Source: Minisyncoccota bacterium (GTDB lineage Bacteria > Patescibacteriota > Minisyncoccia > 2-02-FULL-40-12 > GWA2-44-9). Taken from it: DNA of 64,000 nucleotides. Shown here piece after piece: positions 9,340-41,887 of this stretch. The position numbers and the translations under genes are program-made. The stretch is from NCBI GenBank assembly GCA_035620375.1, contig DASPGX010000006.1, positions 6,156 to 70,155 of the forward strand. The letters run 5' to 3'. Positions within the stretch are counted from its first letter, which is position 1. Each line of letters starts with the position of its first letter. The notes under the pieces were generated by a model. The model ran no database searches. It saw only the letters and a program-made list of their open reading frames with translations, and was not told where the DNA came from.

Positions 9340-10215
9340 TTACATGTCGTCCAGCGAGCCGGGGTCCCTGAAGTCGTCGGGCGTAATCCACGCGACAAGA
9401 AAGGGGCGGGCGAGTCCGCGCCGCTCAATCCAGAACAGGAACGGCCGGTCGATGACGTACGGTCGGGGCCGGGGCTGGACCGACGTGCGCATGATGCCCA
9501 GCGCGACGCCGGATTTCGCGCGGAAGCCGAACTGGTTCATTTTCAACTTGGTCTGCTGAACCGCCTGCGCGACCTTGAACCGGTCGCCGGCGTCGTCGTT
9601 GGTCCACAGTTCCAGCATCCAGGAAATGTCCGGTTGGACGTCCAGGTTCACCATCGGAAAGTGCAGTGCATCGTACGTACGCAGCCCGGTGCGTTCGGTC
9701 GCGACCAGTTCCATGAGCGCCAGATCGTCAGGCGCCTGGCGCTTGCTCGGTCCGTCGGGCATCAGGGCGAAGTTGGCGACGTCTCCGCTCTCGGTCATCG
9801 CGTGGGCGATGACGCCCAGGCGGGACAGCGAAAACGTGACGTGCCGTGTGAGGAACACGCCGGGCACCTCGCCGGAGAGGTCCGGGACGTTCAGCGGCCG
9901 GACGGTGCCCATGGTTCTCCACTTGCCCGTTACGTCCAGCACGCTCGCCGTCCCGAATCCGTCGGGCGGGAACGGGTTGAGCGCGATGGCGAACTTCCGT
10001 TCCCGCAGGAACCGGTTGATGACCGCGTGGTCGCGTGACGCCGTGGATTCGATTTCCGGGATGCGCCCCAGCTCACGGCGGCAGGGGACGAAGTGATTCC
10101 CCAGAAACCGACGCTGCGTGTCGTTGACGGCGTGCCAAGTGCGGTCGGGTCCGAGAAACTCATCCGCCTTGTCCAGTGCGCCCGTGATGGGGTACGTACA
10201 GATGGTTCTGCTCAA
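9340..10215 (-). CDS. Hypothetical protein (about 291 aa), start re-assigned to TTG
   Basis: The ORF-track start (10515) overlaps the divergent GT2 gene. A strong minus-strand promoter TTGACC-17-TATTAT followed by GAGGAGA-6nt-TTG at 10213-10215 supports a shorter product. C-terminal motif VIDRPFLFWIERRG noted. Confidence 0.5.
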   Translation of the reverse strand: MSRTICTYPITGALDKADEFLGPDRTWHAVNDTQRRFLGNHFVPCRRELGRIPEIESTASRDHAVINRFLRERKFAIALNPFPPDGFGTASVLDVTGKWRTMGTVRPLNVPDLSGEVPGVFLTRHVTFSLSRLGVIAHAMTESGDVANFALMPDGPSKRQAPDDLALMELVATERTGLRTYDALHFPMVNLDVQPDISWMLELWTNDDAGDRFKVAQAVQQTKLKMNQFGFRAKSGVALGIMRTSVQPRPRPYVIDRPFLFWIERRGLARPFLVAWITPDDFRDPGSLDDM

Positions 10216-10330
10216 TATCCGTCTCCTCGTGTGGTTAAGAGCCGGGAAATAATACCTGAGAAAGTGACCGTGGTCAATCGCGCGTGTCCGCTTTGATTTT
10301 TCGCGCGTTGGATTATTATAGGTAGGAATT

Positions 10331-11056
10331 ATGGATGTATCCGTCGTCATTCCCGCGTACAACGAAGCCAAGCGCATCGGCGCGACCCTGGACGCCGTCT
10401 GTGCGTTTCTGTCGGCGAAGTCCGGACTCCGGTGGGAGGTGGTCGTGGTTGATAACCGTTCCAAGGACGACACCGCGGCCGTCGCGCGTTCCCGGGCGGA
10501 GAAGTGGCCGGGCATCAGGGTCGTCCGCGAAGAACAGCCCGGAAAAGGCTACGCGGTGACCGCGGGCATGCTCGCGGCAACGGGTGCGGCGCGTCTGTTC
10601 ATGGATGCGGACCACTCCACGACCATCGACCACTATGACCGGATGGCCCCGTTCCTCGGTGAGGGTTACGACGTCGTCATCGCGTCGCTGACCGAGCCGG
10701 GGGCTTCAGTGCGCAACGAGGGCAGGGAGCCGCTGTGGCGGGTCATTCTCGGAAAGCTTGGCAACAAGTGGATTCAGGTGTTCGCGGTATGGGGTATCGG
10801 TGATACGCAGCGGGGATTCAAGATGTTCAGTGAGCGTGCCGCGAAGGATATCTTTCCGCGCCTGACCGTATTCGGCTGGGGTTTTGACGTGGAGGTTCTC
10901 GCCATCGCCCGTGCGCGCGGATACCGCATCAAGGAGGTCCCCGTGCATCAGTGGAACAACGCGCCCGACTCCAAGGTGAACGTCTGGGCATATCCGCAGG
11001 TGCTTCTGCAGACCCTGCTGGTGTTCAGGAACCGGCTGTTCGGGAAGTACCGGTAA
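10331..11056 (+). CDS. Family-2 glycosyltransferase (dolichyl/polyprenyl-phosphate sugar synthase-like)
   Basis: MDVSVVIPAYNEAKRIGATL...VVVVDNRSKDDT...DADHS is the classic GT2 N-terminal signature with DxD. Confidence 0.8.
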   Translation: MDVSVVIPAYNEAKRIGATLDAVCAFLSAKSGLRWEVVVVDNRSKDDTAAVARSRAEKWPGIRVVREEQPGKGYAVTAGMLAATGAARLFMDADHSTTIDHYDRMAPFLGEGYDVVIASLTEPGASVRNEGREPLWRVILGKLGNKWIQVFAVWGIGDTQRGFKMFSERAAKDIFPRLTVFGWGFDVEVLAIARARGYRIKEVPVHQWNNAPDSKVNVWAYPQVLLQTLLVFRNRLFGKYR

Positions 11057-11057
11057 T

Positions 11058-12095
11058 ATGGCCGTATCCGAATTCCGCAAAGATCTGGTTTCCGGGGAAT
11101 GGGTGCTCATCGCAAGCGGCCGTGCACGGCGTCCGGACGCGCCGGAGAACAAACGGCCCGCACGCGAACCTTCCCGGAAGGAATCCTGTCCGTTCGAGGA
11201 TCCGCAGGCTTCGGGGAACGCCGCGCCGGTACTCGCGTATCACGGCGGTACGCGTATCCAATGGACGCCGGGGACGGATTGGTCGGTGCAGGTCATCCCC
11301 AACAAGTTTCCCGCACTGACGCCGGGCGTGTGCGGCGCTCCCGAGCGTACCGGGCCGTTCCTTACACACCCCGCACACGGGTTTCATGAACTGGTGGTCA
11401 CGCGGGATCACGAGCGGGGCTTCGCGCAGTTCACCGGCGCGGAGACCGCGGAGGTGCTGAAGGTGTACCGTGAACGTTTCCGGGAAATCGCCAAGGACGA
11501 ATGCGGGGACTATGTCAGTATTTTCCATAACTGGGGGAGGACGGCGGGGGCGAGCGTGTATCACAACCATTCGCAGATTATTTCCACTCCGGTGCTGCCC
11601 CCGGAGGTTCTGCGGAGCGTCAGCGGCGCAGATGCGTTCTACCGGACGCATGATGAGCCCGTACACCGGCGGCTTATCCAGTGGGAGATGAACCAGGGCC
11701 GCCGCATGGTCTACGAGAACGGCGCTTTCGTCGCCTTCTGCCCGTACGTGTCCAAGACGCCGTATGAGGTCCGTATTTTCCCCAAGCGGCATGAGCCGCG
11801 CTTTGAGAATATCCGCGATGACGAGATTGAGGATTGCGCACAGGCGCTGAACGCCGTTCTGGGTTCGGTGTATGACGCTCTCGGCGACCCGGATTACAAC
11901 TTCTATATTCATACGGCTCCGGTGACCAAGGATCCGGCGGTCAGTTATGACTTCTATCACTGGCATATCGAGATTGTACCCCGTATCTCGGTGCCGGCGG
12001 GTTTTGAGCTCGGTACGGCGATATATATCAACGTCGTCGACCCCGACGATGCGGCGGCGAAGCTCCGTGAGGCGGTCCGTAACGGTTCAACATGA
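11058..12095 (+). CDS. GalT-like HIT-family nucleotidyltransferase (galactose-1-phosphate uridylyltransferase family)
   Basis: HxHxQ active-site motif (YHNHSQI) and N-terminal Cys/His zinc region (SCPFED). Tandem half-domains typical of the GalT fold. Confidence 0.6.
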   Translation: MAVSEFRKDLVSGEWVLIASGRARRPDAPENKRPAREPSRKESCPFEDPQASGNAAPVLAYHGGTRIQWTPGTDWSVQVIPNKFPALTPGVCGAPERTGPFLTHPAHGFHELVVTRDHERGFAQFTGAETAEVLKVYRERFREIAKDECGDYVSIFHNWGRTAGASVYHNHSQIISTPVLPPEVLRSVSGADAFYRTHDEPVHRRLIQWEMNQGRRMVYENGAFVAFCPYVSKTPYEVRIFPKRHEPRFENIRDDEIEDCAQALNAVLGSVYDALGDPDYNFYIHTAPVTKDPAVSYDFYHWHIEIVPRISVPAGFELGTAIYINVVDPDDAAAKLREAVRNGST

Positions 12096-12862
12096 AGAAG
12101 TTCATTATCGCCAACTGGAAGATGATGCCGCGCGACGCCGCACATGTCCGGGAGATTCTCGTGCGCACGGACGAGTTCCTCCAGGGCTTCCAGGAGCGTA
12201 CGCCGATGTCGCTCGTGTTCTGTCCGCCGTTCGTGTTCCTGGACGAGGTTGCGGGATTCCTGCGGCAGTCGCACCTGCTGCATGACGCCGAACTCGGCGC
12301 GCAGGACGTTGCCGCCCGCGACGAGGGCGCCGCGACCGGCGAAGTCTCCGGAAGCCAGCTTGTTGCGTCGGGAGTACGCTATGTCATTGTCGGACACAGT
12401 GAGCGGCGGGCGATGGGCGAGGACGATGATGCGGTGAACGCCAAACTCAAGGCCGCGCTCCGGAACGGTCTGGTGCCCATCGTCTGCGTCGGTGAGGTTT
12501 CACGTGACGGGGAATGGGAGGATATGCTCCGTGCACAGCTCAGGGGAACATTCCGGGACTCCGGATCCGATGACGTGTCCCGCTGCCTGATTGCCTATGA
12601 GCCCGTGTGGGCGATAAGTACGACGCCCGGAGCGAAGCCCGATACACCCGCAAGCGCAGCGCAGTCGGCCGGGCTCATACGGGAATTCCTCCGGAGCGAA
12701 TTCGGGAGCGGGGACGTACGGGTACTGTACGGCGGTTCGGTGAAACCGGATAACGCGGCGGGATTTCTGACGGATGAAGCGTTCAACGGCGTGCTGGTGG
12801 GCGGGGCGTCCGTGAAACCTGACGACTTCGCCGCGATTATCAGGGCATCCGTCATCACATGA
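12092..12862 (+). CDS. tpiA: Triose-phosphate isomerase
   Basis: N-terminal IIANWKM motif, catalytic VGHSERR, YGGSV near the C-terminus. Confidence 0.9.
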   Translation: MKKFIIANWKMMPRDAAHVREILVRTDEFLQGFQERTPMSLVFCPPFVFLDEVAGFLRQSHLLHDAELGAQDVAARDEGAATGEVSGSQLVASGVRYVIVGHSERRAMGEDDDAVNAKLKAALRNGLVPIVCVGEVSRDGEWEDMLRAQLRGTFRDSGSDDVSRCLIAYEPVWAISTTPGAKPDTPASAAQSAGLIREFLRSEFGSGDVRVLYGGSVKPDNAAGFLTDEAFNGVLVGGASVKPDDFAAIIRASVIT

Positions 12863-13950
12863 GAACCGTACGCGACATTCCCGGCCTATCGGACGCCACC
12901 GTTCTGCTGCGGGCGGACCTGGATGTGCCGGTCGCGGAGAACGGACTCATCGAAGAGGAGTTCCGCATCATCCAGCAGAAGGAAAACCTGGACTTTCTTC
13001 TTTCCGGCGGCGCGCGGGTCGTCATGGTCGCGCACGCCTCGGATCCCCAGGCGCAGTCATTCCGCGGACTCCTGCCGCAGCTCAAACGGCTGTTCGGACG
13101 GGAGATTTCGTTCCTCGCCGGACTGGAGGATATCCGGAATGTTTCCGGACGGGCAGGTTCCTTCTATCTGTTGGACAACGTGCGGCGATGGCCGGAGGAG
13201 ACGCGCAACGACGCGGCATTCGCCGCAGAACTCGCCGACGGATTCGACGTGTACGTGAACAACGCGTTCGCCGTCGTGCACCGGGAGCACGCATCCGTCT
13301 CCGCTGCCGCGTTTATCAAGCCCGCGTACGCGGGACTGCTGGTGGAGAAGGAGATACGGCAGCTTTCCGACGTCATCGACGCCCCGGCGGAGGGGAAGGT
13401 CCTCATCATGGGCGGGGCCAAGGCGTCCACGAAGGTACCCGTCATCAGTAATCTCATCGCCAAGGCGGAGCACGTGCTGGTCGGCGGCATCGTCGCCAAC
13501 GACATCCTCAAGGCAAAGGGGCAGGATATCGGATCGTCCCGGGTGGATGACAATATCGGGCAGCTGCTCAAGGGACTGGACCTGGATGACCCGCGTCTGC
13601 ACGTTCCCGACGATTCGGTTGTCGAGGAGGGTGCGTACATGGACCTGGGCCCCAATTCCGTGCATGCGTATACGTCCATCATCAAATCGGCGAAGACCGT
13701 CATCTGGAACGGTCCGGTCGGGAAGTTCGAAGATATCCGATTCGCCGGCGGTACGCTGGCCATCGCCAGGGCGATTGTCGACAGCGGCGCGTTCTCCCTC
13801 ATCGGCGGCGGTGATACGATTGCGGCCGTGAGCCAGGCCGGTTTGCTGAACCGCTTCGGTCATGTGTCCACCGGAGGAGGAGCGATGCTTGCGTTCCTGT
13901 CGGGCGAGCGGCTGCCGGGGCTCGTACCGCTGGGCGTCTATCCGAAATGA
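12859..13950 (+). CDS. pgk: Phosphoglycerate kinase
   Basis: LLRADLDVPV N-terminal substrate-binding motif. C-terminal IGGGDTIAAV...STGGGAMLAFLSGERLPGL nucleotide-binding signature. 4-nt overlap with tpiA. Confidence 0.85.
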   Translation: MRTVRDIPGLSDATVLLRADLDVPVAENGLIEEEFRIIQQKENLDFLLSGGARVVMVAHASDPQAQSFRGLLPQLKRLFGREISFLAGLEDIRNVSGRAGSFYLLDNVRRWPEETRNDAAFAAELADGFDVYVNNAFAVVHREHASVSAAAFIKPAYAGLLVEKEIRQLSDVIDAPAEGKVLIMGGAKASTKVPVISNLIAKAEHVLVGGIVANDILKAKGQDIGSSRVDDNIGQLLKGLDLDDPRLHVPDDSVVEEGAYMDLGPNSVHAYTSIIKSAKTVIWNGPVGKFEDIRFAGGTLAIARAIVDSGAFSLIGGGDTIAAVSQAGLLNRFGHVSTGGGAMLAFLSGERLPGLVPLGVYPK

Positions 13951-14852
13951 TGAAATTCACCGAACACCGCGCGACCCGCAGGGCCGCGTCCAAGAAGATT
14001 GTTGTGTTGTACCATGCCGAGTGCACGGACGGCTTTGTTGCGGCGTGGGCGGCATTCCGGCACTTCGGGAAGAAGGCCGAATACCATGCGGTGGAGCACC
14101 AGTACCCGATGCCCGAAAAGCTCACGGGCAAGGAAGTCTATACGCTCGATTTTACGTATCCCGAGGACATCACGCGGGCCCTGATGGCCGATAACGAGCG
14201 GGTTACCAGCATCGACCACCACGTGTCGGTCGCCGATGTGACGCGCATGACCGTCGGCGGGGTGTACGACAACGACCATTCCGGGGCGATGCTCTCGTGG
14301 AAGTATTTTCATCCGGACGTTCCCGCGCCGCTGCTTGTCCGCATCGTGGAGGACTACGACCTGCACCGGTTCAGTCTGCCGGAGACGCGGACCATCATGG
14401 ATTTTCTTGACCTGTATGACTTTGAGTTCACCACGTACACCAAGCTTGCACGGATGCTGGACCGTCCGATGGGCCTCAGGCGGGGACTCCGCACCGGCGG
14501 CATCGTGAGCCTGTACCGTGAGCGGGCGGTGCGGAGCCTGATGGGAAACTCCACGTACGAGGTGCAGTTTGACGAACATAAGGCAGGTGCCATCAATACC
14601 GAGTTTTATCATGCCGAAATTGCCACCCTTCTGGCGGAGAAATACCATGTCGGCATCGCGTGGCGCGTGCGGCCGCACGGAACCTATGTGTCCCTGCGCT
14701 CGGACGGCACGGTGAACGTCGCTGATCTGGCGTCGCGGTACGGGGGCGGGGGACATGCGCGCTCGGCAGGTTTCGTCGTCGCCTCTCCCTCGCATCTGCC
14801 GTTCCAGCAGGCCGCCGGTGAACAGACGGATGCCCCGAACAATGAGCGCTGA
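13947..14852 (+). CDS. DHH-family phosphoesterase (NrnA-like nanoRNase/pAp phosphatase)
   Basis: DHH motif (SIDHHVS) and DHHA1 GGGH motif (YGGGGHARSAG). Confidence 0.7.
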   Translation: MMKFTEHRATRRAASKKIVVLYHAECTDGFVAAWAAFRHFGKKAEYHAVEHQYPMPEKLTGKEVYTLDFTYPEDITRALMADNERVTSIDHHVSVADVTRMTVGGVYDNDHSGAMLSWKYFHPDVPAPLLVRIVEDYDLHRFSLPETRTIMDFLDLYDFEFTTYTKLARMLDRPMGLRRGLRTGGIVSLYRERAVRSLMGNSTYEVQFDEHKAGAINTEFYHAEIATLLAEKYHVGIAWRVRPHGTYVSLRSDGTVNVADLASRYGGGGHARSAGFVVASPSHLPFQQAAGEQTDAPNNER

Positions 14853-15282
14853 CGGATACATTATTTTTGCGGACGGCGGAGCCCGGGGGAACCCGGGTCC
14901 TGCGGCGTACGGCTTCGTGCTCCGCGGCGCGGATATCGCGGAATTCGCCTACGGAAAGGCAATCGGAAAGGCGACGAACAACGTCGCCGAGTACACGGCG
15001 GCCATTGAAGCGCTCAAAAAACTCAAATCGCTCATCGGGGCGGAGCGCGCCGCGGCGGCATCCGTGCAGGTCAACGCGGACAGCGAACTGCTGGTCAAAC
15101 AGATGAACCGCGAGTACCGGGTGAAGGACCCCGACCTCCAGCGCATGTACATGGAACTGCACAATGTGATGATGGACTTCCGCGCCGTCGCCTTCGTGCA
15201 TGTCCGCCGCGAACAGAACAAGCTCGCCGACCATATGGTCAACGACGCTTTGGACAGGGAACAGGCGACCCTGGAACTCTGA
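14842..15282 (+). CDS. rnhA: Ribonuclease HI-like protein
   Basis: Start is taken at the internal ATG (MSADGYIIFADGGARGNPGPAAYGFVL). Catalytic DGG...NNVAEYTAAIEAL...D pattern of the RNase H fold. 11-nt overlap with the upstream gene. Confidence 0.7.
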   Translation: MSADGYIIFADGGARGNPGPAAYGFVLRGADIAEFAYGKAIGKATNNVAEYTAAIEALKKLKSLIGAERAAAASVQVNADSELLVKQMNREYRVKDPDLQRMYMELHNVMMDFRAVAFVHVRREQNKLADHMVNDALDREQATLEL

Positions 15283-15399
15283 TTTTCCGCGTAAAGACGC
15301 CTCCGCATGGCGCGATTCAACGGCTCATCAGGTGAGCCGTTGAACTGTTGATAGTATCTGCGTTTCAGAGGGCGTTTTCGCGTTATACTTACAGGGAAT

Positions 15400-16518
15400 A
15401 TGCCGGAGCCAGCGGAAAAGGAGCCGGTGGTTTTTGAGGGGTCACCCACGGGGCGGCGGGCCGAGTTTGATTGGCTGATGAACCGGGAAAACCCGGAAAG
15501 CACCTATCAGCAGGCGATCGAGGACATCGTCGCCGATGCGCAGGCGATGGAGCGTACGCTCAAGTCCATCGACGCGATGCCGCAGGCGGTGGATGCGACC
15601 GAGGAGAAGCTCCGGAAAGAACACCAGAAAAAGGCTCATGACGACCTCATCAGGCTGAGGGACAAATACGAGGACCTGGTCAACAGCCTGCCTCCCGACC
15701 ACGAGCTGCGTTCCAAGGCGGCGCCTATGGAACAGGCAGCGGCTGAAATCTTCAATTCCATGCTGCGCAAGTCGGCCGGCCAGCTGGAGGAAGGCGCAAT
15801 CGTCAACGTGGGCAGTGACCGTGATTTGAACGGCGAACCCGGCACGCAGGCGCCCGGACAGAACCGGGAGAAGGCCCGTGTGCTGGACAAGGAAAAATAC
15901 GAGCAGCGGGTCTGGGCAATTCTGCAGGACGTCGTGCAAATCGGCGAGATGCTCAATTTCAAGGGCAACGACACGAAGGTCCGCGAGACGATGCTCCGGG
16001 AATTGCTCCGTCTGGAAGAGGTTCTCCGCGACTTGGACGTCAGCGCGCAGTATCCCGATTCGCAAATCCGGAGGGATGCCGAGCGCATCATTGACGAGCT
16101 CGGCAAGCGGTGGCAGGAGCTTGTGCCGCCGGAGAAGCCGTCTCCGCCTTCCGTTCCACGGCCGCGCACGCCTAAGGGAAGCGTCTTCGCCGCGTGGATG
16201 CCCCGTGTTCCGCGTCCGGCCTACGCCGCAAGACCCGACATGCGTGTCATGCTTGCCGCGGTGTCCGCGCTTCCGCCGTTGGCCGTTCCCGCTCCGGCTC
16301 CGGGACGCGCCAAACCCAAGGTTCCGGTTCTGCCGAAGGATTGGGACAGCTTGGACGAGGCCGCCCGTGTCGCCGCGCTGGAAACCTTCCTCGGCGATTT
16401 CATCGCGGAATACTCCCGCATCATGGGGGAGCACCGTGCGGCGTTGCAGGCAATCATTTCCGGGGTCAAAGAGCGGAAGCTCAAGGCGCTCCGTGCTAAA
16501 CTGGACGTATCAGAATGA
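15400..16518 (+). CDS. Hypothetical coiled-coil protein with Pro-rich C-terminal half (372 aa)
   Basis: Long ORF with consistent GC3 codon bias. First of three genes on one strand, each overlapping the next by 4 nt. No known domain. Confidence 0.55.
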   Translation: MPEPAEKEPVVFEGSPTGRRAEFDWLMNRENPESTYQQAIEDIVADAQAMERTLKSIDAMPQAVDATEEKLRKEHQKKAHDDLIRLRDKYEDLVNSLPPDHELRSKAAPMEQAAAEIFNSMLRKSAGQLEEGAIVNVGSDRDLNGEPGTQAPGQNREKARVLDKEKYEQRVWAILQDVVQIGEMLNFKGNDTKVRETMLRELLRLEEVLRDLDVSAQYPDSQIRRDAERIIDELGKRWQELVPPEKPSPPSVPRPRTPKGSVFAAWMPRVPRPAYAARPDMRVMLAAVSALPPLAVPAPAPGRAKPKVPVLPKDWDSLDEAARVAALETFLGDFIAEYSRIMGEHRAALQAIISGVKERKLKALRAKLDVSE

Positions 16519-33090: not shown

Positions 33091-33161
33091 TGCGGGGTCG
33101 TCTAATGGTAGGACACGTGCCTCTGGAGCACGGTATCTTGGTTCGAGTCCAAGCCCCGCAG
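33091..33161 (+). tRNA. tRNA-Gln (anticodon CTG)
   Basis: UGCGGGGUCGUCUAAUGGUAGGAC...anticodon stem CGUGC/GCACG with loop CUCUGGA...GGUUCGAGUCCAAGCCCCGCA-G. Followed by hairpin terminator AACGGCTCAC-cgc-GTGAGCCGTT (33178-33200). Confidence 0.88.
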
Positions 33162-33334
33162 CAATTATAATTAACGGCTCACCGCGTGAGCCGTTAAAGA
33201 GCCGCCATCCGGCGCCTTGCGCCGGCCCACATCCAAACCCGAAATCCTACGGCCCGTTGGCCTCAGGATGATCTGCAACGGGGACGCAAATCAAAAGGAG
33301 CGGGGGTGAGCCCGCTCCCGTGAAACGGAAGACG

Positions 33335-34171
33335 TCAGTCGGTGTCGCTCAGATGCTCCATGAACGTGGACTGGACGGCGCCGAAGCGCTCGAATCCCTC
33401 CATGATCCAGGACGCGGCGAGCCCGCGGGAGTCCTTGCCGGCGTAGAACCGCAGTGCCGTGTTGGCGGCGTCGGCGGCGTACTCGAAGTGGTCCGCCTCC
33501 ACGCTGGTGTGGATGAACACCCAGTAGTAGGCGTTGTGCTTGTTCCCGGACAGCCGGACGGTCGTCTTTTCCAGGTGAGCGGCCAGCGCCTGCCACTGCT
33601 CCTTCAGGTAGGCGTCCAGGATGTTGAACTCGGCGTCCGCCAGGATTTCCGAACCCATGTGGAAACCCAGACCCCGGAACAGGCGCTGGTCGTTCAACGT
33701 CTCGCTGATTCCGTAGCCGGCCTTGACCCGCTCGATCGCCAGCGTCGTGGCGTGGGCCCCGCGGGAGATGAGCTCCACCACGGTTCCGGGCGCGATGCCC
33801 AGGTACTCCGCGGTCGCCTTCAGGGTCGCCTGGGCCAGCATCCGGTGCGTGTCCAGATGCGGCATCCTGCGGTCGTCGAACTCGTCGATGGCGGCGGCGA
33901 AGACGCGGGCGGCCACCTCCGTGCTCTTGTCCGCGATGTTCGCGATGGGCTCCTCCGGGTCGCGGAACAGGTCGCGGCGGATGGCCAGCTCGCCGGCCAG
34001 ATTCGCCACGCCTCCGCCGAAGATACCGTTGAACTGGATGTAGCGGCCCAAAACCCTGATGAGGTCCTCCGGTCCGGCGATTGTCTCCAGCTGGTTCCGG
34101 AAGGTCCGGTTGCCCACGTGCTTGTCCACGAGGGGCTGCACCATCTCGCGGGTGATTGCGGTCGTCCCCAT
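33335..34171 (-). CDS. Hypothetical all-helical protein (278 aa), possibly heme-oxygenase-like/iron-containing redox enzyme fold
   Basis: AGGAGGA RBS before the ATG on the minus strand. A minus-strand terminator lies at 33296-33325. Fold guess is from E/H spacing only. Confidence 0.5.
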   Translation of the reverse strand: MGTTAITREMVQPLVDKHVGNRTFRNQLETIAGPEDLIRVLGRYIQFNGIFGGGVANLAGELAIRRDLFRDPEEPIANIADKSTEVAARVFAAAIDEFDDRRMPHLDTHRMLAQATLKATAEYLGIAPGTVVELISRGAHATTLAIERVKAGYGISETLNDQRLFRGLGFHMGSEILADAEFNILDAYLKEQWQALAAHLEKTTVRLSGNKHNAYYWVFIHTSVEADHFEYAADAANTALRFYAGKDSRGLAASWIMEGFERFGAVQSTFMEHLSDTD

Positions 34172-34326
34172 GAATCCTCCTGAGCTTTCAGTGTTCTTGC
34201 GACGGGCATATCATACACCATAAACTTGTATCCGGCAAGGATGTCTTGACGCAACCGTATATATAATGTATTTTCCTTCCGCGTCAGGTCCGCTTTCCGG
34301 CACCTGAACAACCCAGAGGAGGGTCA

Positions 34327-34926
34327 ATGAAGTTCGTCACCGGCCTGCTTGCCGCGTCGTTCCTGCTCGCCGCGGGCGCCGCGTCCGCGCAGGTACTCAC
34401 CCCCGCGGAGACGCTGGGCAAGGGAAACGACACGTTTTTCCTGTCGGAGAACCATCTCTTCGTGGACGGCGACCGCCTGAACATCGCCTACGCCGGCTAC
34501 ATGCGCGGCGTGACGGAGCGCGCGGACGTCTACGGGTACGCCGGCGTCACGCACATCTTCGGCGAGGACCAGGTCTGGCTGGGCATCGGCGGCAACGTGC
34601 GCCTGTTCCGGTACAAGGGCTTCACCGTCTCGTCGTTCAACGTCCTGTCCACCGGTCTGCACCGGCGGAGCGAGTCCTCCACGGTGCTGTGGAACACGGC
34701 CGCCGTGGTCAGCCGCAACCTGTCGCAGTCGGTGTCCGTCTGGAGCGGCGTGAATGCACTCCTGCCGCTGGGCAACCGCGAGCAGGGCCTGTTCACCCCG
34801 CCCGACTACGAGTGGAACGTCCCCGTCGGGGCGTCCTGGCTCATCAACGACCGGTTCGGCGTGTACGGCGAGGTGGACTTCGGCCACGTCACCGCCGTCG
34901 GCGTCGGGCTCTCCATCGCCAACTGA
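34327..34926 (+). CDS. Secreted beta-rich hypothetical protein (199 aa)
   Basis: Signal peptide MKFVTGLLAASFLLAAGAASAQ. AGGAGGG RBS. AT-rich promoter-like stretch at 34246-34267. Confidence 0.55.
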   Translation: MKFVTGLLAASFLLAAGAASAQVLTPAETLGKGNDTFFLSENHLFVDGDRLNIAYAGYMRGVTERADVYGYAGVTHIFGEDQVWLGIGGNVRLFRYKGFTVSSFNVLSTGLHRRSESSTVLWNTAAVVSRNLSQSVSVWSGVNALLPLGNREQGLFTPPDYEWNVPVGASWLINDRFGVYGEVDFGHVTAVGVGLSIAN

Positions 34927-34992
34927 ACCCCGCCCGCCCGATCGCTTCCGCGAGAGGGCGGGTTCCTGTTTTCCGGAGTTGTCCGCGGACTA

Positions 34993-35020
34993 TTGACTTT
35001 TATATATAATATTGTAGTAT
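34993..35020 (+). promoter_or_regulatory. Candidate promoter TTGACT-16-TAGTAT for the 35.1-38.7 kb module
   Basis: Sharply AT-rich (ttgacttttatatataatattgtagtat) in a GC-rich context, about 70 nt upstream of the first gene of the cluster. Confidence 0.45.
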
Positions 35021-35090
35021 CTTGCCGCAACATGGACGTTCACAACTGAGTAAAGGACCCTACGAAAACCGCAGAAAGAGAGGTGGCAAT

Positions 35091-35345
35091 GTGACATCAG
35101 GCGGCAAGGCACCTCTCCGGGCCATCGTGCAGGGCACCTATGGGCCGTCCGGCGGCAGGTATGCCGTCGGGACCGCGACGACCGTTACCGGCTCCATCAC
35201 GTTCTCCCTGAAACGGGACGTGTGGGGCGAGGGGCGGGAGCCGCGGGCAGGCGAAGAGGTGTTTCTGGACGACATCACCCGGAACAGAGAAGGGTGGCGG
35301 GCCAACAGGGCGCGGCTCATCCGGCTCGGCGACGGGCAGGGATAG
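35091..35345 (+). CDS. Small hypothetical protein (84 aa)
   Basis: GTG start with GAGAGGTGG RBS. Gly/Thr-rich N-terminus. Confidence 0.4.
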   Translation: MTSGGKAPLRAIVQGTYGPSGGRYAVGTATTVTGSITFSLKRDVWGEGREPRAGEEVFLDDITRNREGWRANRARLIRLGDGQG

Positions 35346-35387
35346 CCGTTCAAGCAACGAGCAACGAGAAGTGAGAAAGGAGAACCG

Positions 35388-36047
35388 ATGAGTTTTCTGG
35401 CAAGACTGAAGGAGACGCTGAATCCGTTCGAAGAGGTGCCCGACAAGGGCGCCGCCGCCGAGACGGAGGACGCTCCGGAGACGCCGGTCCGCACGGGCCG
35501 GGGCCGTGGCGCTCCGTCCGTCATCTTCCCGAAGGTCGCCCCGACGGCGGCCGGCGTGGACGACGGCACGGTGGACGACTTCCTCAAGCAGCTCCGTGCC
35601 GAGACGGCGAGCAGGCGCTCGGCAGGACACACCGCGTTCTACGAAAAGCTGGACGCGCTGGTGGAGTTCGTTCCCGATCCGGGCAGCCGGTACAAGGCCG
35701 CCCTCAAGACGGCCAAGGGCGTGACCGCCAAGGACCTCCTGGCTTCCATCACCGCCGTGGAAACGGCGCTCGGTGAGGAGTCCAAGGAGTTCGAGGCGGA
35801 AATCGGCTCGGCCGAGGAGCGGGAAGTCATCGGCGCGCGCGCCGAGGCGGAGGCAATCGACGGTCAGATCGAGACGCTCAACCAGCAGCTCGGCGAGCTG
35901 CGGGCCAAGCGTACGTCGCTGGCCGGCGGCATCTCCAACGCGGAGCGCAAGTACGCGGGTCTCCGCGCGGCGTTCAGCAAGGCGCTCGGCACGTTCAAGA
36001 GAGAGCTGGACGCCGAGCGGACCAACATCACGACCCACCTGGGCTGA
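35388..36047 (+). CDS. Soluble coiled-coil hypothetical protein (219 aa)
   Basis: AAAGGAGAA RBS. Acidic disordered N-terminus then a long helical/coiled-coil region. Confidence 0.55.
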   Translation: MSFLARLKETLNPFEEVPDKGAAAETEDAPETPVRTGRGRGAPSVIFPKVAPTAAGVDDGTVDDFLKQLRAETASRRSAGHTAFYEKLDALVEFVPDPGSRYKAALKTAKGVTAKDLLASITAVETALGEESKEFEAEIGSAEEREVIGARAEAEAIDGQIETLNQQLGELRAKRTSLAGGISNAERKYAGLRAAFSKALGTFKRELDAERTNITTHLG

Positions 36048-36077
36048 CATCCGGGCACGGAAGAAAGGAGAACAGAC

Positions 36078-37136
36078 ATGCACGGTATGGAAATTCCGGG
36101 CTCGGGGCAGGGGAAGTCGTTCTGGGAGCGGCCGGAGGGCACTGCCGGAATGATTTTCGGCCTCCTGGCCATCGCGGCCGGCGTGGTCGGTCTGGGCTTG
36201 GCCCTGCCGTTCCTCATCGGCCTGGTGCAGAACCTCATCACGCTCGTCGGGCTCGGCCTGACGCTCATTCCGATGGCGGTCCTGCTTTTCGCGATGCTCT
36301 GGGTCGTCATGGACAAGCGCTTCTGGACGCTCGGCTGGTACCTCTACAAGTCGGCGATGCGGAAGATCACTTCGATGTTCGTGGAGATCGACCCCATCGG
36401 CATCATGAAGAGCTACGTGGAGAGCCTGCAGGACAAGCGGAACGAGATGGCCAGGAACATCAAGGACCTGTCCGGACAGTTCCGCGTCCTCGGCGAGAAG
36501 ATCCAGGCCAATCAGCGCGAGGGCGAAGCCGCCCTCAAGATGGCCGCAGTCGCCCGCCGGGAGAACGAGAAGACGACGGTCGCCCTGGAGTCCCGCAAGG
36601 CCGGAAGGCTCAAGCGGGCCAACATCGACCTCATCGACTTGCACAAGAAGATCGAGCTGACGCTGCGGGTGCTCAAGAAGTACCACGACGTCGCCGGCGT
36701 CATCATCGCCGACATCGAGCACGAGGTGAAGGTGCAGGAGGACAAGCGGAGCAGCATCCGCAAGGCCTACGGCGCCTTCAAGCAGGCGATGGCCATCTTC
36801 AACGGCGACCCCGACAAGATGGAGATGTTCAACATGGCGATGGAGAGCGTCGCCAACGACTACGGACAGAAGCTCGGCGAAATCGAGTACTTCATCGACT
36901 CGTCCGAGTCCATTATCAAGGGCATCGACCTGCAGAACATGCAGTTCGAGGAAGAGGCCCTGGCGATGCTGGACGAGTGGGAGTCCAAGGCCGACGACCT
37001 GCTCATGGACCCCGTCGAAAAGCGGAACATCATGTCCCAGTCATACAGCGACACCGAAGTTCTCGACGTCGATGCGCTCGGGAGCCAGGTGACGGAGCAG
37101 CCGGTCAGGCGCAGCAAGTACCTGTCCGGCAACTGA
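36078..37136 (+). CDS. Membrane protein with two N-terminal TM helices and about 280-aa coiled-coil domain (352 aa)
   Basis: Hydrophobic helices GMIFGLLAIAAGVVGLGLALPFLIGLV and LTLIPMAVLLFAMLWVV. The remainder is heptad-rich. Faint TelA-like flavour only. Confidence 0.55.
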   Translation: MHGMEIPGSGQGKSFWERPEGTAGMIFGLLAIAAGVVGLGLALPFLIGLVQNLITLVGLGLTLIPMAVLLFAMLWVVMDKRFWTLGWYLYKSAMRKITSMFVEIDPIGIMKSYVESLQDKRNEMARNIKDLSGQFRVLGEKIQANQREGEAALKMAAVARRENEKTTVALESRKAGRLKRANIDLIDLHKKIELTLRVLKKYHDVAGVIIADIEHEVKVQEDKRSSIRKAYGAFKQAMAIFNGDPDKMEMFNMAMESVANDYGQKLGEIEYFIDSSESIIKGIDLQNMQFEEEALAMLDEWESKADDLLMDPVEKRNIMSQSYSDTEVLDVDALGSQVTEQPVRRSKYLSGN

Positions 37137-37182
37137 TTCGCGCATCACTCATCGGACAACGAACAGAAAGGAGCATTGAGCA

Positions 37183-38730
37183 ATGGCAAGGCAAATGAAG
37201 GCCGGGCACAAGTTCGTCCTGATCCTGCTCGTCATGAGCGGCATCGGCGCGGCCGGGTGGTTCGGCTGGCCGTACCTGGAGAAGCTGGCTCCGCCCAGCA
37301 GGGGCGCCTCGGGCGGTTCGTCCGCCCCCGTCGCCATCCCGAACAACAGCAAGTACGACCTGGTGCGGGTCGCGGTGGTCACCTGGGGTGGCTACGCCGG
37401 CGGCCAGTACTTCAACCGCGGATTCAAGCCGAATCCGGACTCCCGGTACATCCAGGAGTACGGACTCCCGGTGGAGTTCGTGGTGATGGACGACTACCTG
37501 GCGTCGCGCGAGGCGTGGAAGGCCGGCGAGGTCCACCTGTTGTGGGCTACCGCCGACTCGTTCCCGACCGAGGCGTCCAGCATGGCGTCCTTCGAGCCCA
37601 CCATCGTCTTCCAGTCCGACTGGTCCCGCGGCGGCGACGTCATCGTCTCCCGCGAGGGCATCGGTTCCATGCGCGACCTGCGGGGCAAGCGGGTGTCGGT
37701 GGCGTTCGGTACGCCGTCGCACACGTTCCTGCTGCGCATGCTGGAGTCCGCGGGCATGAGCGTCCGCGACATCCAGATCGTGGAGGTCCCTTCGGCCATC
37801 GACTCCGCCGCGGCCTTCAAGGCCGGTCAGGTGGAGGCGGCGGTCGTCTGGTCCCCGGACGACGAGGACTGCGTCCAGTCCGTCCGCGGGTCCAAGCGCC
37901 TGGTCAGCACCAAGGAAGCGGCCTACATCATCGCGGACGTCTTCTACGGAAAGAAGGGCTGGGTGGAAAGCCACCAGGAAGAGCTCAAGGCGCTCGTCGA
38001 GGGATGGCTGCGCGGCGCGGCCGAGGTCAACACGAACCCGTCCGCCAAGGCGCAAGCCGTCCGCATCCTCGCCGAGGGCCTGAACCAGCCGGAGAGCTTC
38101 ACGGAGATCGCCATCAACAACGCGCGTCTGACGACGTACGGCGACAACGTGAACTTCTTCAACCTCAGCGGTAACGCCACCGGCGTGACCGGCGAGCGGC
38201 TGTACATGGAGACCGGAGCGCTCTACCAGGCCAACACGAACCTCGTGTCCGGCCGGCTGCCCAACTGGCGGCAGGTCACCGACACGAGCGCCCTGCGGGC
38301 GGTCAACCTGAACGGACCGGAGCACGCCGCCGAAGGGCAGTTCCAGTTCGCCAAGGCCACGCAGGCCCAGGCGTCCGCCGAGGCGTTCTCGTCCAAGGCG
38401 GTGTCGGTGAGCTTCCCGACGGGTTCGGCCACGCTGGACCCGAACGCGAGGACCATCATCGACCTGGGATTCGTTCCCACGGCCAAGGCGTTCGCCAGCG
38501 TGCGTATCCGCATCGAGGGCAACACGGACGTCACCGGCTCGTACGACACCAACAAGCGGCTGTCCGAAGCCCGCGCCCGCGCCGTCGCCGACTACCTCGC
38601 ACAGGAGTACGGCTTCGACCGGAACCGGTTCATCGTGGTCGGCAACGGCCCCGACAAGCCGGTGTGCCGCGACGATTCGGCGGACTGCTACGCCAGGAAC
38701 CGCCGGACCGACTTCGAGCTGCTGCAGTAG
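37183..38730 (+). CDS. Membrane-anchored SsuA/NMT1-like substrate-binding protein fused to C-terminal OmpA-like peptidoglycan-binding domain (515 aa)
   Basis: N-terminal signal anchor (KFVLILLVMSGIGAAGWFGW). Periplasmic-binding-protein region (VRVAVVTWGGYAGGQYF..., NitT/TauT SBP-like). C-terminal OmpA_C signature (IRIEGNTDVTGSYDTNKRLSEARARAVADYL...NRRTDFELL). Confidence 0.7.
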   Translation: MARQMKAGHKFVLILLVMSGIGAAGWFGWPYLEKLAPPSRGASGGSSAPVAIPNNSKYDLVRVAVVTWGGYAGGQYFNRGFKPNPDSRYIQEYGLPVEFVVMDDYLASREAWKAGEVHLLWATADSFPTEASSMASFEPTIVFQSDWSRGGDVIVSREGIGSMRDLRGKRVSVAFGTPSHTFLLRMLESAGMSVRDIQIVEVPSAIDSAAAFKAGQVEAAVVWSPDDEDCVQSVRGSKRLVSTKEAAYIIADVFYGKKGWVESHQEELKALVEGWLRGAAEVNTNPSAKAQAVRILAEGLNQPESFTEIAINNARLTTYGDNVNFFNLSGNATGVTGERLYMETGALYQANTNLVSGRLPNWRQVTDTSALRAVNLNGPEHAAEGQFQFAKATQAQASAEAFSSKAVSVSFPTGSATLDPNARTIIDLGFVPTAKAFASVRIRIEGNTDVTGSYDTNKRLSEARARAVADYLAQEYGFDRNRFIVVGNGPDKPVCRDDSADCYARNRRTDFELLQ

Positions 38731-38758
38731 ACACACCGTTCCCGGGGTGGGGCGCAAC
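38722..38758 (+). terminator. Rho-independent terminator/attenuator after the binding-protein gene
   Basis: GGGGTGGGGCG-caa-CGCCCCACCCC followed by TTTTCC. Confidence 0.6.
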
Positions 38759-38793
38759 GCCCCACCCCTTTTCCTTAATCAAGGAGAAGTCGC

Positions 38794-39588
38794 ATGAAGG
38801 GATTGTTCACGCTCCGCGGCGAGCTGACGAGGGTCCAGGAGATCGTGCTCGCCGCCGCCGGGACGGTGCTGCTGCTTGCGGGATGGTCCGCCGTGTCATC
38901 CACGGTCGGCCAGCCCAAGCTGCTTCCGTACCCGTCCGCGGTACTCGCCTCGTTCGCCGAGCTGCACTTCGAGGACGCGCTGGTACGCAACACCTTCGCG
39001 TCCATCAAGCTCAACGTGCTCGGCTACCTGGAGGCAATCGCCATCGCGCTGCCCCTGGGGTTCCTCATCGGCCTCGTGCCGTTGTTCCGGGGACTGTTCC
39101 ACCGGCACGTCGTCGCCCTGCGGTATCTGCCGCTGACGGCGGTCGTGGGGTTGTTCATCCTCTGGTTCGGCATCTACGGGACCATGAAGGTGCAGTTCCT
39201 CACGCTGGGCATCCTCGTCTACCTGCTTCCGGTGGTCGTGGACCGCATCGACGAGGTGCAGAGGGTCTACCTGGATACGGTCAAAACGCTGGGCGCAAGC
39301 GCCCTGCAGACCATCCGGACCGTGTACGTGCCCGACGTCTTGTCGCGCGTGTACGGGGACGTCGTGACGCTGGTGGCCATCAGCTGGACCTACATCATCA
39401 TCGCGGAAATCATCAACCTCGGTCAGGGCGGCATCGGCGCGCTGGTCTACCAGTCGGCGCGGCAGAGCCGGCCGGACAAGGTGTTCGCGGTCCTGGTGGT
39501 CATCATCGCCATCGGGTTCGTGCAGGATAAGGCGCTCAAGGGTCTGGGAAGGGTGCTCTTCCCGTACCGCTACGGCGCGGGGAGGTGA
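38794..39588 (+). CDS. ABC transporter permease, NitT/TauT (SsuC/TauC-like) family
   Basis: Six TM segments. Conserved cytoplasmic loop of binding-protein-dependent permeases. AAGGAGAAG RBS. Confidence 0.8.
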   Translation: MKGLFTLRGELTRVQEIVLAAAGTVLLLAGWSAVSSTVGQPKLLPYPSAVLASFAELHFEDALVRNTFASIKLNVLGYLEAIAIALPLGFLIGLVPLFRGLFHRHVVALRYLPLTAVVGLFILWFGIYGTMKVQFLTLGILVYLLPVVVDRIDEVQRVYLDTVKTLGASALQTIRTVYVPDVLSRVYGDVVTLVAISWTYIIIAEIINLGQGGIGALVYQSARQSRPDKVFAVLVVIIAIGFVQDKALKGLGRVLFPYRYGAGR

Positions 39589-40412
39589 CCGCCATGGAGA
39601 ACATCCGGTTCGTAAACCGCGAGGAGTTCACGGACGCCATCGAGCTCCGGGACGTCTCGCACACGTACGACGGCGGAACGACCTGGACCATCCGGGACTG
39701 CAACCTGCTCATCGAGAACGAGACCGGCAAGGGGGAGTTCGTGGTCCTGCTCGGCCTGTCCGGCTGCGGCAAGTCCACGCTTCTGCGGTTCATCGCAGGA
39801 CTGGCGAAGCCGACCAAGGGCCAGGTCCTCATCGGCGGCAAGCCGCGGACGGACCGGGACGTCATCAGCATGGTGTTCCAGCAGTACTCGTCCCTGCCGT
39901 GGTACACGGTCCTGGACAACGTGGCGCTTGCGCTCCGGTACCAGGGCGTGCCCCGGAAGGAGAAGTACGAACGGGCGCGTGAGATGATCCGGCGGGTCGG
40001 CCTGGCGGGACACGAGCACAAGTACTCCACCGAGCTGTCCGGCGGACAGCTCCAGCGGGTCGCCATCGCAAGGAGCCTGGTATCCAACCCGGGGATGGTC
40101 CTGATGGACGAGCCGTTCGGCGCCCTGGACGTGGTGACGCGGTACGAGATGCAGATGCTGGTCAACGATCTCTTCGAGAGTATCCAGCCGACCATCATCT
40201 TCATCACCCACGACATCCGCGAGGCCGTGTTCCTGGCCAACCGCATCTACGTCATGTCGCCGCGGCCGGGACGCATCACGCACAAGATTGACGTGGACCC
40301 GGTGCTGAGCTGGCACCGTGACAAGAGCACGCTGCGCGACCCCGCGTTCACCGACCTGGTGCATGAGGTGGACGCGGCGCTTGCCGCGACGGTCAACAAC
40401 GCGAAGTTCTGA
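39585..40412 (+). CDS. ABC transporter ATP-binding protein, NitT/TauT (SsuB/TauB-like) family
   Basis: Walker A GLSGCGKSTLLRFIAG, signature LSGGQLQRVAIARSL, Walker B LMDEPFGALD. 4-nt overlap with the permease. Terminator at 40420-40450. Confidence 0.85.
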   Translation: MTAMENIRFVNREEFTDAIELRDVSHTYDGGTTWTIRDCNLLIENETGKGEFVVLLGLSGCGKSTLLRFIAGLAKPTKGQVLIGGKPRTDRDVISMVFQQYSSLPWYTVLDNVALALRYQGVPRKEKYERAREMIRRVGLAGHEHKYSTELSGGQLQRVAIARSLVSNPGMVLMDEPFGALDVVTRYEMQMLVNDLFESIQPTIIFITHDIREAVFLANRIYVMSPRPGRITHKIDVDPVLSWHRDKSTLRDPAFTDLVHEVDAALAATVNNAKF

Positions 40413-40511
40413 ATCGCGAAGGCGGGACGCTCCGGCGCCCCGCCTTTTACTTTTGACGATTTTAATAAATTGTTGTATTCTATGCCATCTTTGACGTTGG
40501 AGGTGGTTCAC

Positions 40512-41153
40512 ATGGGTCAGGCCGAATGGGCCCGGAAGCAGTACAATAGCTGGGAAGCGTACGACGCGGACCTCAAAGAAGCCGGATGGGAGGTTCCTGA
40601 CGAGTTGTCCCGTGCCGTGGCGCCGTACCTGCGGAGGTATGACATTACCCTGGACGTCGGTTGCGGAACCGGGCTTCTGGGCGCCGGCCTCCGGTTCCAG
40701 GGGTATGCCGGCAGGCTCATCGGGCTGGATGCCGCCGAAGAGCGCCTTGCCGAAGCGCGGGCGCGGACATTCGCCGGCCGGACGGTGTACGACCTGACGA
40801 GGACGGGGGATGCCTATCGGCTCCCGTGGCATCCGCGTTCGTTCAACGCGGTCGTCTCTTCGGCGATGCTGGGCCTGACCGGTCCCCGCTCGCTGGTGCA
40901 GATGCTCCGCGTTCTGCGGAAAGACGGAATTCTCGGCATCGTACCGGCGCGCCTGCTGGGCAACCGGCAGCACGAGACGAGATATCGCAGGGTACTCGAT
41001 ACCCTGGAGACTTTTGTCGGTTCCCGGCTTCTGGAAGTTCTGGAACAGCGGAGTCTGGGCACCGGCTACCACGGACCGGACCGCGATGAGCGGTACGTGC
41101 TGTACATCTGCCGGCTGACCCGGCCGTACCGCACGGGGCGGCCATGGCGATAA
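40512..41153 (+). CDS. Class I SAM-dependent methyltransferase
   Basis: Motif I LDVGCGTGLLGAGL. GGAGGTGG RBS before ATG 40512. Confidence 0.7.
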   Translation: MGQAEWARKQYNSWEAYDADLKEAGWEVPDELSRAVAPYLRRYDITLDVGCGTGLLGAGLRFQGYAGRLIGLDAAEERLAEARARTFAGRTVYDLTRTGDAYRLPWHPRSFNAVVSSAMLGLTGPRSLVQMLRVLRKDGILGIVPARLLGNRQHETRYRRVLDTLETFVGSRLLEVLEQRSLGTGYHGPDRDERYVLYICRLTRPYRTGRPWR

Positions 41154-41887
41154 AAAACGCGGTTGTCGCGTTTGCACTGCTCACGGCAGCCGCGAACGCG
41201 GCGCCCGTGGACGGTCCGGAACGGCACGAGTTCGCATTCGCGCGGCTGGAGTACCGTGGCTGCAACAGCGGATGGGACTTCCAATTTCCGCCGTGGGCGA
41301 CGGACTATCCTAAGGCCGACGAGCAGTTCATTCTCGGTGTCCGCCGCCTGGCAAACCTGGACATCTATCCGCGGGCGCATGTCGTGCGCATCGGCGACGA
41401 ACTGCACCGGTATCCGTTCCTGTACGCGGTGGAGGTCGGCAACATGTGTCTGACGGACATCGAGGCCGCTCAGCTTGCCCGCGTATTGGACGGAAGGGGC
41501 GGATTCCTGATGGTGGACGACTTCTGGGGCGAGTTACAATGGGACCAATTCGCCGGACAGATGGCGAAGGTCCTGCCCGGCCGGCCCATCCGCGAACTGC
41601 CGATGAGCCACCCGGTATTCCGCTCGTTCTACGATGTGCGGGAGACCGTACAGATTCCGAACATCATACAGGCGCTTGCCGGCGGTTCCACTGCCGAGTG
41701 CGAGGGCTGCGAGCACCGCGTGTACGGCATAGAGGATGAGCGCGGCCGACTGGTGGTGCTCATCCTGCACAACACGGACCTCGGCGATGCCTGGGAATGG
41801 GCGGAAAATCCGTACTTCCCGCTGGCGATGTCCAACTACGCGTTCAAGATGGGCATCAACGCCATCGTCTACGCGATGACGCATTGA
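41144..41887 (+). CDS. Secreted protein, DUF4159-like (247 aa)
   Basis: Signal peptide. Motifs PFLYAVEVG, GGFLMVDDFWG, HPVFRSF resemble DUF4159 (glutamine-amidotransferase-like fold) as recalled. Terminator at 41888-41928. Confidence 0.5.
   Translation: MAIKNAVVAFALLTAAANAAPVDGPERHEFAFARLEYRGCNSGWDFQFPPWATDYPKADEQFILGVRRLANLDIYPRAHVVRIGDELHRYPFLYAVEVGNMCLTDIEAAQLARVLDGRGGFLMVDDFWGELQWDQFAGQMAKVLPGRPIRELPMSHPVFRSFYDVRETVQIPNIIQALAGGSTAECEGCEHRVYGIEDERGRLVVLILHNTDLGDAWEWAENPYFPLAMSNYAFKMGINAIVYAMTH

Follow-up and report, generated by a model that had tools for sequence, protein, structure and literature searches.

A co-conserved gene module of two coiled-coil proteins, a binding protein-OmpA fusion and an ABC importer in a Minisyncoccota bacterium, other bacteria and huge phages

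Gene content, transcription units and encoded proteins

The window analysed here is a 64,000-nt stretch of contig DASPGX010000006.1 (assembly GCA_035620375.1) from a Minisyncoccota bacterium. At positions 35091-41887 it carries eight open reading frames (ORFs) on the + strand, g1 to g8, which a first-pass annotation had grouped into one envelope module of coiled-coil proteins, a binding protein-OmpA fusion, an ATP-binding cassette (ABC) importer, a methyltransferase and a secreted protein. ORF calls and Pfam/NCBIfam searches bore out the coordinates and domain calls of all eight, and an envelope module comprising the coiled-coil proteins, the fusion and a NitT/TauT-type ABC importer is supported. 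The eight-gene extent is not supported, because homologues of g7 and g8 stand beside the core in 0 of about 290 related loci; the check on neighbour co-conservation thus fails for these two genes and holds for g2-g6. The real feature is a core of five genes, six with g1, at 35091-40447, and g7 and g8 are a separate, unrelated transcription unit, mere neighbours of the core.

The first gene, g1 (35091-35345), encodes a protein of 84 amino acids (aa) belonging to no known family and has a GTG start behind the purine-rich ribosome-binding site AGAGGTGG. It is followed by g2 (35388-36047) and g3 (36078-37136), encoding the coiled-coil protein CC1 of 219 aa and the protein CC2 of 352 aa, respectively, by g4 (37183-38730), encoding the binding protein-OmpA fusion of 515 aa, and by g5 (38794-39588; Pfam BPD_transp_1) and g6 (39585-40412; Pfam ABC_tran), encoding an ABC permease of 264 aa and an ABC ATPase of 275 aa. 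Further downstream, g7 (40470-41153) encodes a class-I S-adenosylmethionine-dependent methyltransferase (Pfam Methyltransf_25/11) and g8 (41144-41887) a DUF4159 protein (Pfam, 2.4e-39). The successive gaps from g1 to g8 are 42, 30, 46, 63, -4, 57 and -10 nt. An identical 6.9-kb public contig carries gene calls with the same products of 84, 219, 352, 515 and 264 aa, and the near-identical context AGAAAGGAG is common to g2, g3 and g4 (repeat family D8).

A candidate sigma-70-like promoter, TTGACT-16-TAGTAT (34993-35020, + strand, consensus match), lies in the AT-rich spacer 5' of g1, behind a hairpin (34932-34963, + strand, from sequence folding) closing the preceding gene. The unit ends at a hairpin terminator (40418-40447, + strand; -22.7 kcal/mol, z = -3.4) followed by UUUUACUUUU, and a promoter-like site, TTGACG-17-TATTCT (40453-40481, + strand, consensus scan), precedes g7; the first-pass annotation had missed both. 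The G+C content at third codon positions (GC3) is 0.84-0.94 across g1-g6 and 0.93-0.95 in the two genes between g1 and the tRNA-Gln, which had been reported upstream of the module and was located at 33091-33162; it is 0.76-0.80 in g7 and g8, and 0.71-0.82 in the other window genes measured. The terminators, the promoter-like sites and this split in GC3 indicate that g1-g6 form one unit and g7-g8 another. A scan against Rfam gathering thresholds returned only four tRNAs, with no riboswitch or RNA leader 5' of the operon. As for g7 and g8, which overlap by 10 nt behind their own promoter-like site, the product of g8 has an apparent N-terminal signal peptide, and the two may function together as a separate pair.

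The hairpin that had been noticed after the binding-protein gene was likewise found, between g4 and g5 at 38744-38768 (+ strand): it is G+C-rich, has 11 base pairs followed by UUUUCC, and folds at -29 kcal/mol (z = -4.4), which makes it a candidate attenuating terminator or mRNA stabiliser. It fits differential expression, in line with the stoichiometric control proposed for it. The spacer between the gene for the solute-binding protein (SBP), i.e. g4 or its homologue, and the permease gene is the most structured one across loci (median minimum free energy per nt -0.29, compared with -0.09 for CC1-CC2 and -0.13 for CC2-SBP), so that the terminator observation generalises beyond the window.

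The g4 product consists, in this order, of an N-terminal transmembrane (TM) anchor, an NMT1/SsuA/TauA-type binding domain and an OmpA-like domain (residues 408-515), with Pfam matches to NMT1/Phosphonate-bd and OmpA (PF00691), the latter scoring 56.5 bits against a cut-off of 27.2. Its nearest solved relatives are the NrtA-like 3e4r, TauA 6ssy, SsuA 2x26 and YiaD 2k1s; YiaD is the best PDB match of the OmpA-like domain (6.9e-12). The 21 g4 orthologues aligned as A4 (mean column identity 52%) all keep to the motifs GNTDxxG...LSxxRA and NRRTDFEL, and the domain, a member of PF00691 that keeps the peptidoglycan-binding motifs, is predicted to bind peptidoglycan. At the C terminus of g4, it carries the NTD...G...LS..RA and NRR motifs of the OmpA-like anchors in MotB/PomB, YiaD, TssL and Pal, but is fused to a solute-binding domain and not to a stator, lipoprotein or secretion component. 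The g4 protein also matches phrog_25518 at 7.7e-37, a family to which PHROGs assigns no function. The permease g5 is TauC/SsuC-like (best NCBIfam TauC/SaoP), and g6, whose reading frame shares 4 nt with that of g5, matches TauB and ProV best in NCBIfam, in each case under the equivalog cut-off. The NMT1/SsuA-type binding protein, BPD_transp_1 and ABC_tran, all with Pfam matches over the cut-offs, together define a NitT/TauT importer. No characterised substrate class could be assigned by equivalog families, every match being well under the cut-off (TauB 205.8 against 357; SsuA_fam 72.7 against 163.5). While the binding domain, the permease and the TauB-like ATPase are those of TauABC, SsuABC and NrtABCD, the binding protein of the module differs in being N-terminally membrane-anchored and, as predicted, C-terminally wall-anchored, and the module has no linked genes for the catabolism of sulfonate, nitrate or taurine.

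CC2 begins with the invariant motif KSFWxRPEG, followed by a TM hairpin whose two hydrophobic helices (about residues 23-50 and 53-78; nt 36144-36311) are separated only by a very short loop. Next come an amphipathic helix of basic character and the EIDPIGIM motif ("IDP"), then long helices and, beyond a variable linker, a C-terminal [D/K]Y..[L/F] peptide. Both ends are predicted to be cytoplasmic by the positive-inside rule. The best solved-structure matches of the predicted helical hairpin and later helices are Vipp1 and PspA. An exhaustive search of 1.84 billion cluster representatives with a hidden Markov model (HMM) of CC2 returned 1443 matches at E<=1e-3 and 1141 at E<=1e-10, and the family is a discrete one, into which canonical PspA is not drawn. 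The possibility that CC2 is a holin or spanin was rejected: only 5 of 32 homologues match a holin family, at E of about 0.15, and the positive-inside rule would place the coiled coil in the cytoplasm.

CC1 has a conserved short N-terminal helix with the consensus MxKNLKSLFIxEEE, a disordered linker, a conserved helical segment (GFDYLEFK...DExTR...AFAMAQ) and a C-terminal single helix of about 105 residues; in its AlphaFold2 model the predicted local distance difference test score is 66 overall and about 90 for the long helix. It belongs to no Pfam family, its only fold or family matches are to heptad coiled coils of a generic kind, and it is predicted to be the cytoplasmic, soluble coiled-coil partner. 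A search with the single sequence found only CC1 itself, and a profile built from neighbouring ORFs was required. Neither sequence nor fold supports CC1 as a PspA, and CC1 and CC2 as paralogues is unsupported because hhalign gives a probability of only 22%. The g1 protein has no match in Pfam, PHROGs or PADLOC; its homologues stand directly 5' of CC1 in only 7-8 loci, those of the nearest relatives (L051, L176, L178, L180, L189, L195 and L203), and g1 is a lineage-specific first gene of the operon.

Co-conservation in cellular, metagenomic and viral loci

ORFs were called in all fetched loci, which were then searched with the eight proteins of the window. The core order CC1-CC2-SBP-permease-ATPase is repeated in several hundred loci, which belong to Bacteroidota, Betaproteobacteria, Geobacter, candidate phyla and huge phages, with median intergenic gaps of 18, 50, 67 and 1.5 nt. 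CC2 has several hundred close homologues, and at least 560 stretches encoding a CC2 relative turned up when one genome per species was scanned. Carriers include Saprospiraceae, Lewinellaceae, Burkholderiales (Polaromonas, Undibacterium, Collimonas, Massilia), Chitinimonas, Geobacter and Calditrichota, with isolates such as Flavilitoribacter nigricans among them. Starting from CC2, a g4 homologue lies after it in 52 of 73 evaluable cellular loci, and a permease and ATPase follow in 26/63; CC1, detected with an iterated HMM, stands directly 5' of CC2 in 98 of 122 loci. The reciprocal test started from g4, using alignment A4 as query, the metagenome figures referring to the best 80 loci with the evaluable cases as denominators: CC2 is present in 61/62, CC1 in 52/57, and the permease and ATPase in 48/58.

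Many Bacteroidota encode CC1 and CC2 without an adjacent transporter, and some loci lacking the g4 type retain nothing but this pair. In Polaromonas (L002/L003, 9096-10241) and in locus L113 (9075-10166), the gene after CC1 and CC2 encodes a protein of about 370 aa with a membrane anchor; in the Polaromonas protein a weak SBP_bac_3 match and a LysM domain replace NMT1 and OmpA, again with no adjacent ABC genes. It seems that the architecture of anchor, binding domain and peptidoglycan-binding domain is more conserved than the particular domains. Stress genes lie beside the module in proteobacterial chromosomes, i.e. a universal stress protein gene (L127, 7181-8113) and two HSP20 genes (Polaromonas L002, 4006-4927), and in L127 an IS110 transposase gene is located 5' of the module.

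Among phages in GenBank, tblastn found CC2 in 15/15 listed Prevotella Lak megaphage records and in the Ralstonia jumbo phage RsoM2USA. In Prevotella phage Lak-B7 (550 kb; L124, MK250026.1 271653-290627), a record without annotation, all five genes occur in order at 8048-15415 of the fetched locus, the g4 homologue matching that of the window at 2e-91. In RsoM2USA (L123, MG752970.1), gp55 and gp54 (8344-9909), both annotated as hypothetical, are CC1 and CC2, with matches to the family HMMs at 7.8e-25 and 2.5e-68, respectively, and no transporter gene adjoins them. In IMG/VR, the module is found on contigs of 100-550 kb; from the g4 side, 47 viral loci contained CC2 in 46 cases, CC1 in 45, the permease in 46 and the ATPase in 44. 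The neighbours of the viral modules include an HNH endonuclease, RNA and DNA ligases, NUDIX, and nicotinamide phosphoribosyltransferase with phosphoribosyl pyrophosphate (PRPP) synthetase, gene types usual in large phages. A search of the literature on Lak phages, jumbo phages, ABC transporters and PspA found no report of a phage-borne module of this kind.

The closest relative of the window's g4, with 62% identity, is encoded on a 332-kb viral contig. On a 332-kb IMG/VR contig (L151, 11237-13525), a PRPP-synthetase-like gene and a nicotinamide phosphoribosyltransferase gene, the latter apparently split into two ORFs, stand directly 3' of the module ATPase; such genes are typical NAD-salvage genes of large phages. 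Some phage-like copies (L005, 12204-13043 and 14501-15412; L125, 14582-15685) have a Band_7 (SPFH) gene between permease and ATPase and a second, free-standing NMT1_3 binding-protein gene after the module.

Proposed function and rival explanations

With moderate confidence, g2-g6, together with g1, are interpreted as one operon for a trans-envelope assembly in which stabilising or remodelling of the membrane at wall-riveted sites is coupled to solute uptake. CC2 would be held in the cytoplasmic membrane by its TM hairpin, with the PspA/Vipp1/ESCRT-III-like hairpin (ESCRT, endosomal sorting complex required for transport) facing the cytoplasm, and would probably polymerise with the soluble CC1 on the inner face of the membrane. 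On the outer face, the g4 product would be anchored in the same membrane, take up a small solute in its TauA/SsuA-type domain and hold peptidoglycan through its OmpA-like domain, while g5 and g6 would constitute a type-I ABC importer receiving the solute from g4. The hairpin after g4 would probably keep the three non-transporter or binding components in excess over the permease and ATPase. A role of this kind would serve envelope-stressed cells and huge phages in long infections alike. The near-obligate linkage in both search directions, in different phyla as well as in phages, speaks for joint action of the parts, and the occurrence of CC1 and CC2 without the importer points to the coiled-coil pair as the functional heart of the system.

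CC2 resembles PspA, Vipp1 (IM30) and LiaH in its predicted helical hairpin, in the amphipathic helix and (E/I)DP motif preceding helix 1 and, by analogy, in a presumed site of action at the membrane; in the PF04012 register, its IDP aligns with the EDP motif of PspA in our reading. PspA is a peripheral protein recruited by PspBC or LiaI, whereas CC2 is integral through a TM hairpin of its own, lies under the PF04012 threshold and forms a discrete family. Several results weigh against the assembly proposed above insofar as it relies on kinship with PspA. The window CC2 matches no Pfam family, and gave no PF04012 match at E<=0.1; 4 of 32 homologues do match PF04012, the best at 2e-05 and 24.7 bits compared with a cut-off of 33.9. 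Comparison of the CC2 family with E. coli PspA by hhalign gave a probability of 2%, the PspA sequence used having been confirmed as 100% identical. The PspA matches in the plasmid collection were nearly all one enterobacterial pspA and yielded no diverse alignment for a profile-profile comparison. A search of the PDB sequences with the CC2 profile matched no PspA or Vipp1 chain. In view of the below-threshold PF04012 match and the negative hhalign result, membership of CC2 in the ESCRT-III/PspA superfamily, as a membrane-anchored representative, is considered probable, not proven.

In Bacillus subtilis, the small membrane anchor LiaI recruits the PspA homologue LiaH. The module follows a similar logic, with a membrane anchor and a PspA-like scaffold side by side, except that CC2 combines both in one polypeptide, that CC1 has no Lia counterpart and that no LiaFSR-type regulators are found nearby. 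The module was also considered, and rejected, as a known anti-phage defence system: PADLOC-DB gave no defence-system match and only generic domains were recognised (MotB-like to ZorB; ABC or methyltransferase to mads components).

The first-pass statement that the gene combination matches no system that can be named is partly outdated, since Ravi et al. 2024 (PMC11237479, section 18 and Table S3) list an operon type from Handelsmanbacteria that comprises PspA, PBPB+OmpA, a permease, an ABC ATPase, a TM-anchored Snf7-like protein and an AAA+ protein, as well as a PspA -> PBPB -> TM+Snf7 arrangement in Archangium. The operon type is covered there by one sentence and two table rows, and a link between membrane remodelling and solute transport is proposed; these passages contain neither distribution figures nor any mention of phages. 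The components by which that operon type is recognised, namely a TM-anchored ESCRT-III-like protein, an SBP-OmpA fusion, a permease and an ATPase, are all present and co-conserved in the module; both systems further share a soluble helical partner, and both occur in uncultivated phyla. They differ in gene order, which in the module is CC1-CC2-SBP-permease-ATPase, and in that the module has no canonical PspA, CC1 not being recognisable as one, and no nearby AAA+ ATPase, whereas a double AAA+ ATPase gene belongs to the published type; CC2 and the "TM+Snf7" protein (OGG56892.1) were compared by description only. The window and six annotated neighbourhoods have no AAA+ gene within about 7-9 kb of the module. 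The association of these component classes has thus been noted before, and what is new, as far as searched and as far as the cited section and table go, are the co-occurrence statistics from both search directions, CC1 as a defined family and the spread of the module in megaphages.

Rather than a remodelling polymer, CC1 and CC2 might be accessory subunits that scaffold, localise or gate an ordinary TauT/NitT nutrient importer, e.g. for a sulfonate, a nitrate-like anion or a pyrimidine precursor. The transporter parts are canonical, the binding protein almost never occurs without CC2, and its binding domain retains 45-62% identity from phylum to phylum and in phages, many aromatic and acidic positions being conserved in A4, a degree of conservation that fits one specific ligand; the sub-threshold PspA assignment of CC2 points the same way. 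This explanation is nevertheless rather unlikely. CC1 and CC2 occur without an adjacent transporter in the jumbo phage and in many Bacteroidota, are paired in Polaromonas with the SBP_bac_3-LysM protein with no ABC genes nearby, and CC2 holds about 40-48% identity whichever binding-protein subtype accompanies it. From the importer-free copies, the alternative partner and the steady identity of CC2, it would seem that the coiled-coil pair is the constant part and not an accessory. A cassette of huge-phage origin, with a role in infection such as membrane remodelling, energising the cell or excluding competitors, and with the cellular copies as acquired passengers, would account for the near-universal and most complete occurrence of the module on the IMG/VR contigs of 100-550 kb and in all listed Lak records, for the closest g4 relative lying beside NAD-salvage genes on a viral contig, for the position of the window module within a GC3-rich block beginning right after tRNA-Gln, and for the IS110 transposase 5' of one proteobacterial copy. 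It is, however, unlikely in view of the at least 560 species-representative stretches with a CC2 relative, isolates included, the copies on Polaromonas and betaproteobacterial contigs among chromosomal genes (HSP20, NorB, GlyS, LptD, SurA), and the absence of any match to a PADLOC defence family; moreover, a search for a direct repeat of the tRNA-Gln end flanking the block found none, i.e. there is no attachment-site repeat.

That all eight genes form one system, the methyltransferase and the secreted DUF4159 protein working with the coiled-coil proteins and the transporter, is suggested by their location on one strand and by their tight packing, with g7 only 57 nt after g6 and the g7/g8 overlap. 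It is very improbable given the lack of g7/g8 homologues beside the core in any related locus, the terminator and promoter-like site between g6 and g7, where GC3 falls from 0.93 to 0.76, and the continuation of the same-strand packing into unrelated genes, e.g. PGA_cap and CofD. An extension of the trans-envelope assembly favoured here, distinctly doubtful at this stage, would have the peptidoglycan-riveted ABC cycle sense or drive an ESCRT-III-like lattice of CC2 and CC1, replacing Vps4/AAA+, with megaphages using it to reshape or protect the host membrane.

Bacterial ESCRT-III relatives such as PspA and Vipp1 are central to membrane integrity, and their partners are little known outside a few model systems. 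An operon with strict order and near-obligate co-occurrence, present in distant phyla and complete on many contigs of megaphage size, offers a concrete system in which to test whether membrane remodelling and transport are coupled, and the module is a candidate means for huge phages to manage the host envelope. Cultivable carriers are available in Ralstonia phage RsoM2USA, Polaromonas, Collimonas, Undibacterium and Flavilitoribacter. Annotation should keep the methyltransferase and DUF4159 genes apart from the module, and two "hypothetical proteins", VD862_00570 and VD862_00575, can be assigned to families that are open to definition.

Neighbouring genes and the setting of the window

The window is cellular and stems from a Patescibacteria genome that NCBI assigns to Candidatus Paceibacterota: Pfam identifies LepA, GDP-mannose dehydratase (GMD), PGA_cap and CofD, and further ORFs were read by eye as TopA, ParB, TPI, PGK, XseAB and NAD synthetase. 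The possibility that the window itself derives from a huge phage was rejected on the basis of the four Pfam-identified genes and these further ORFs. The GC3-rich block adjoining tRNA-Gln extends over about 7.2 kb (33335-40447) and looks like a horizontally acquired segment.

Within this block, a gene on the - strand (33335-34171) encodes a protein of 278 aa, u278, for which Pfam and PDB searches gave no match. Homologues of u278 are encoded directly 3' of the module ATPase on a viral contig (L112, 13185-14114) and a metagenome contig (L251, 6047-6922), and an alignment of the three sequences has conserved DE(F/Y), H, SE and VE..H positions. In our reading, made without a database match, these DE..H and E..H patterns resemble those of haem-oxygenase-like di-iron enzymes. 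A TenA/haem-oxygenase-like enzyme that would hint at a thiamine precursor as substrate was considered and rejected, the Pfam and PDB searches being negative and only the motif patterns remaining.

The gene preceding g1 (34327-34926, + strand), which ends in its own hairpin terminator described above (34932-34963), encodes a protein of 199 aa with an apparent N-terminal signal peptide. It belongs to no family and has no homologue in the fetched loci except on the identical contig L001; its GC3, 0.95, is the highest in the window. Finally, two 30-nt stretches, one in the first TM helix of CC2 (36199-36228) and one in the permease gene (39050-39079), are 87% identical and both encode ALP(L)(G)FLIGLV (D7), which is probably a chance likeness between G+C-rich hydrophobic segments.

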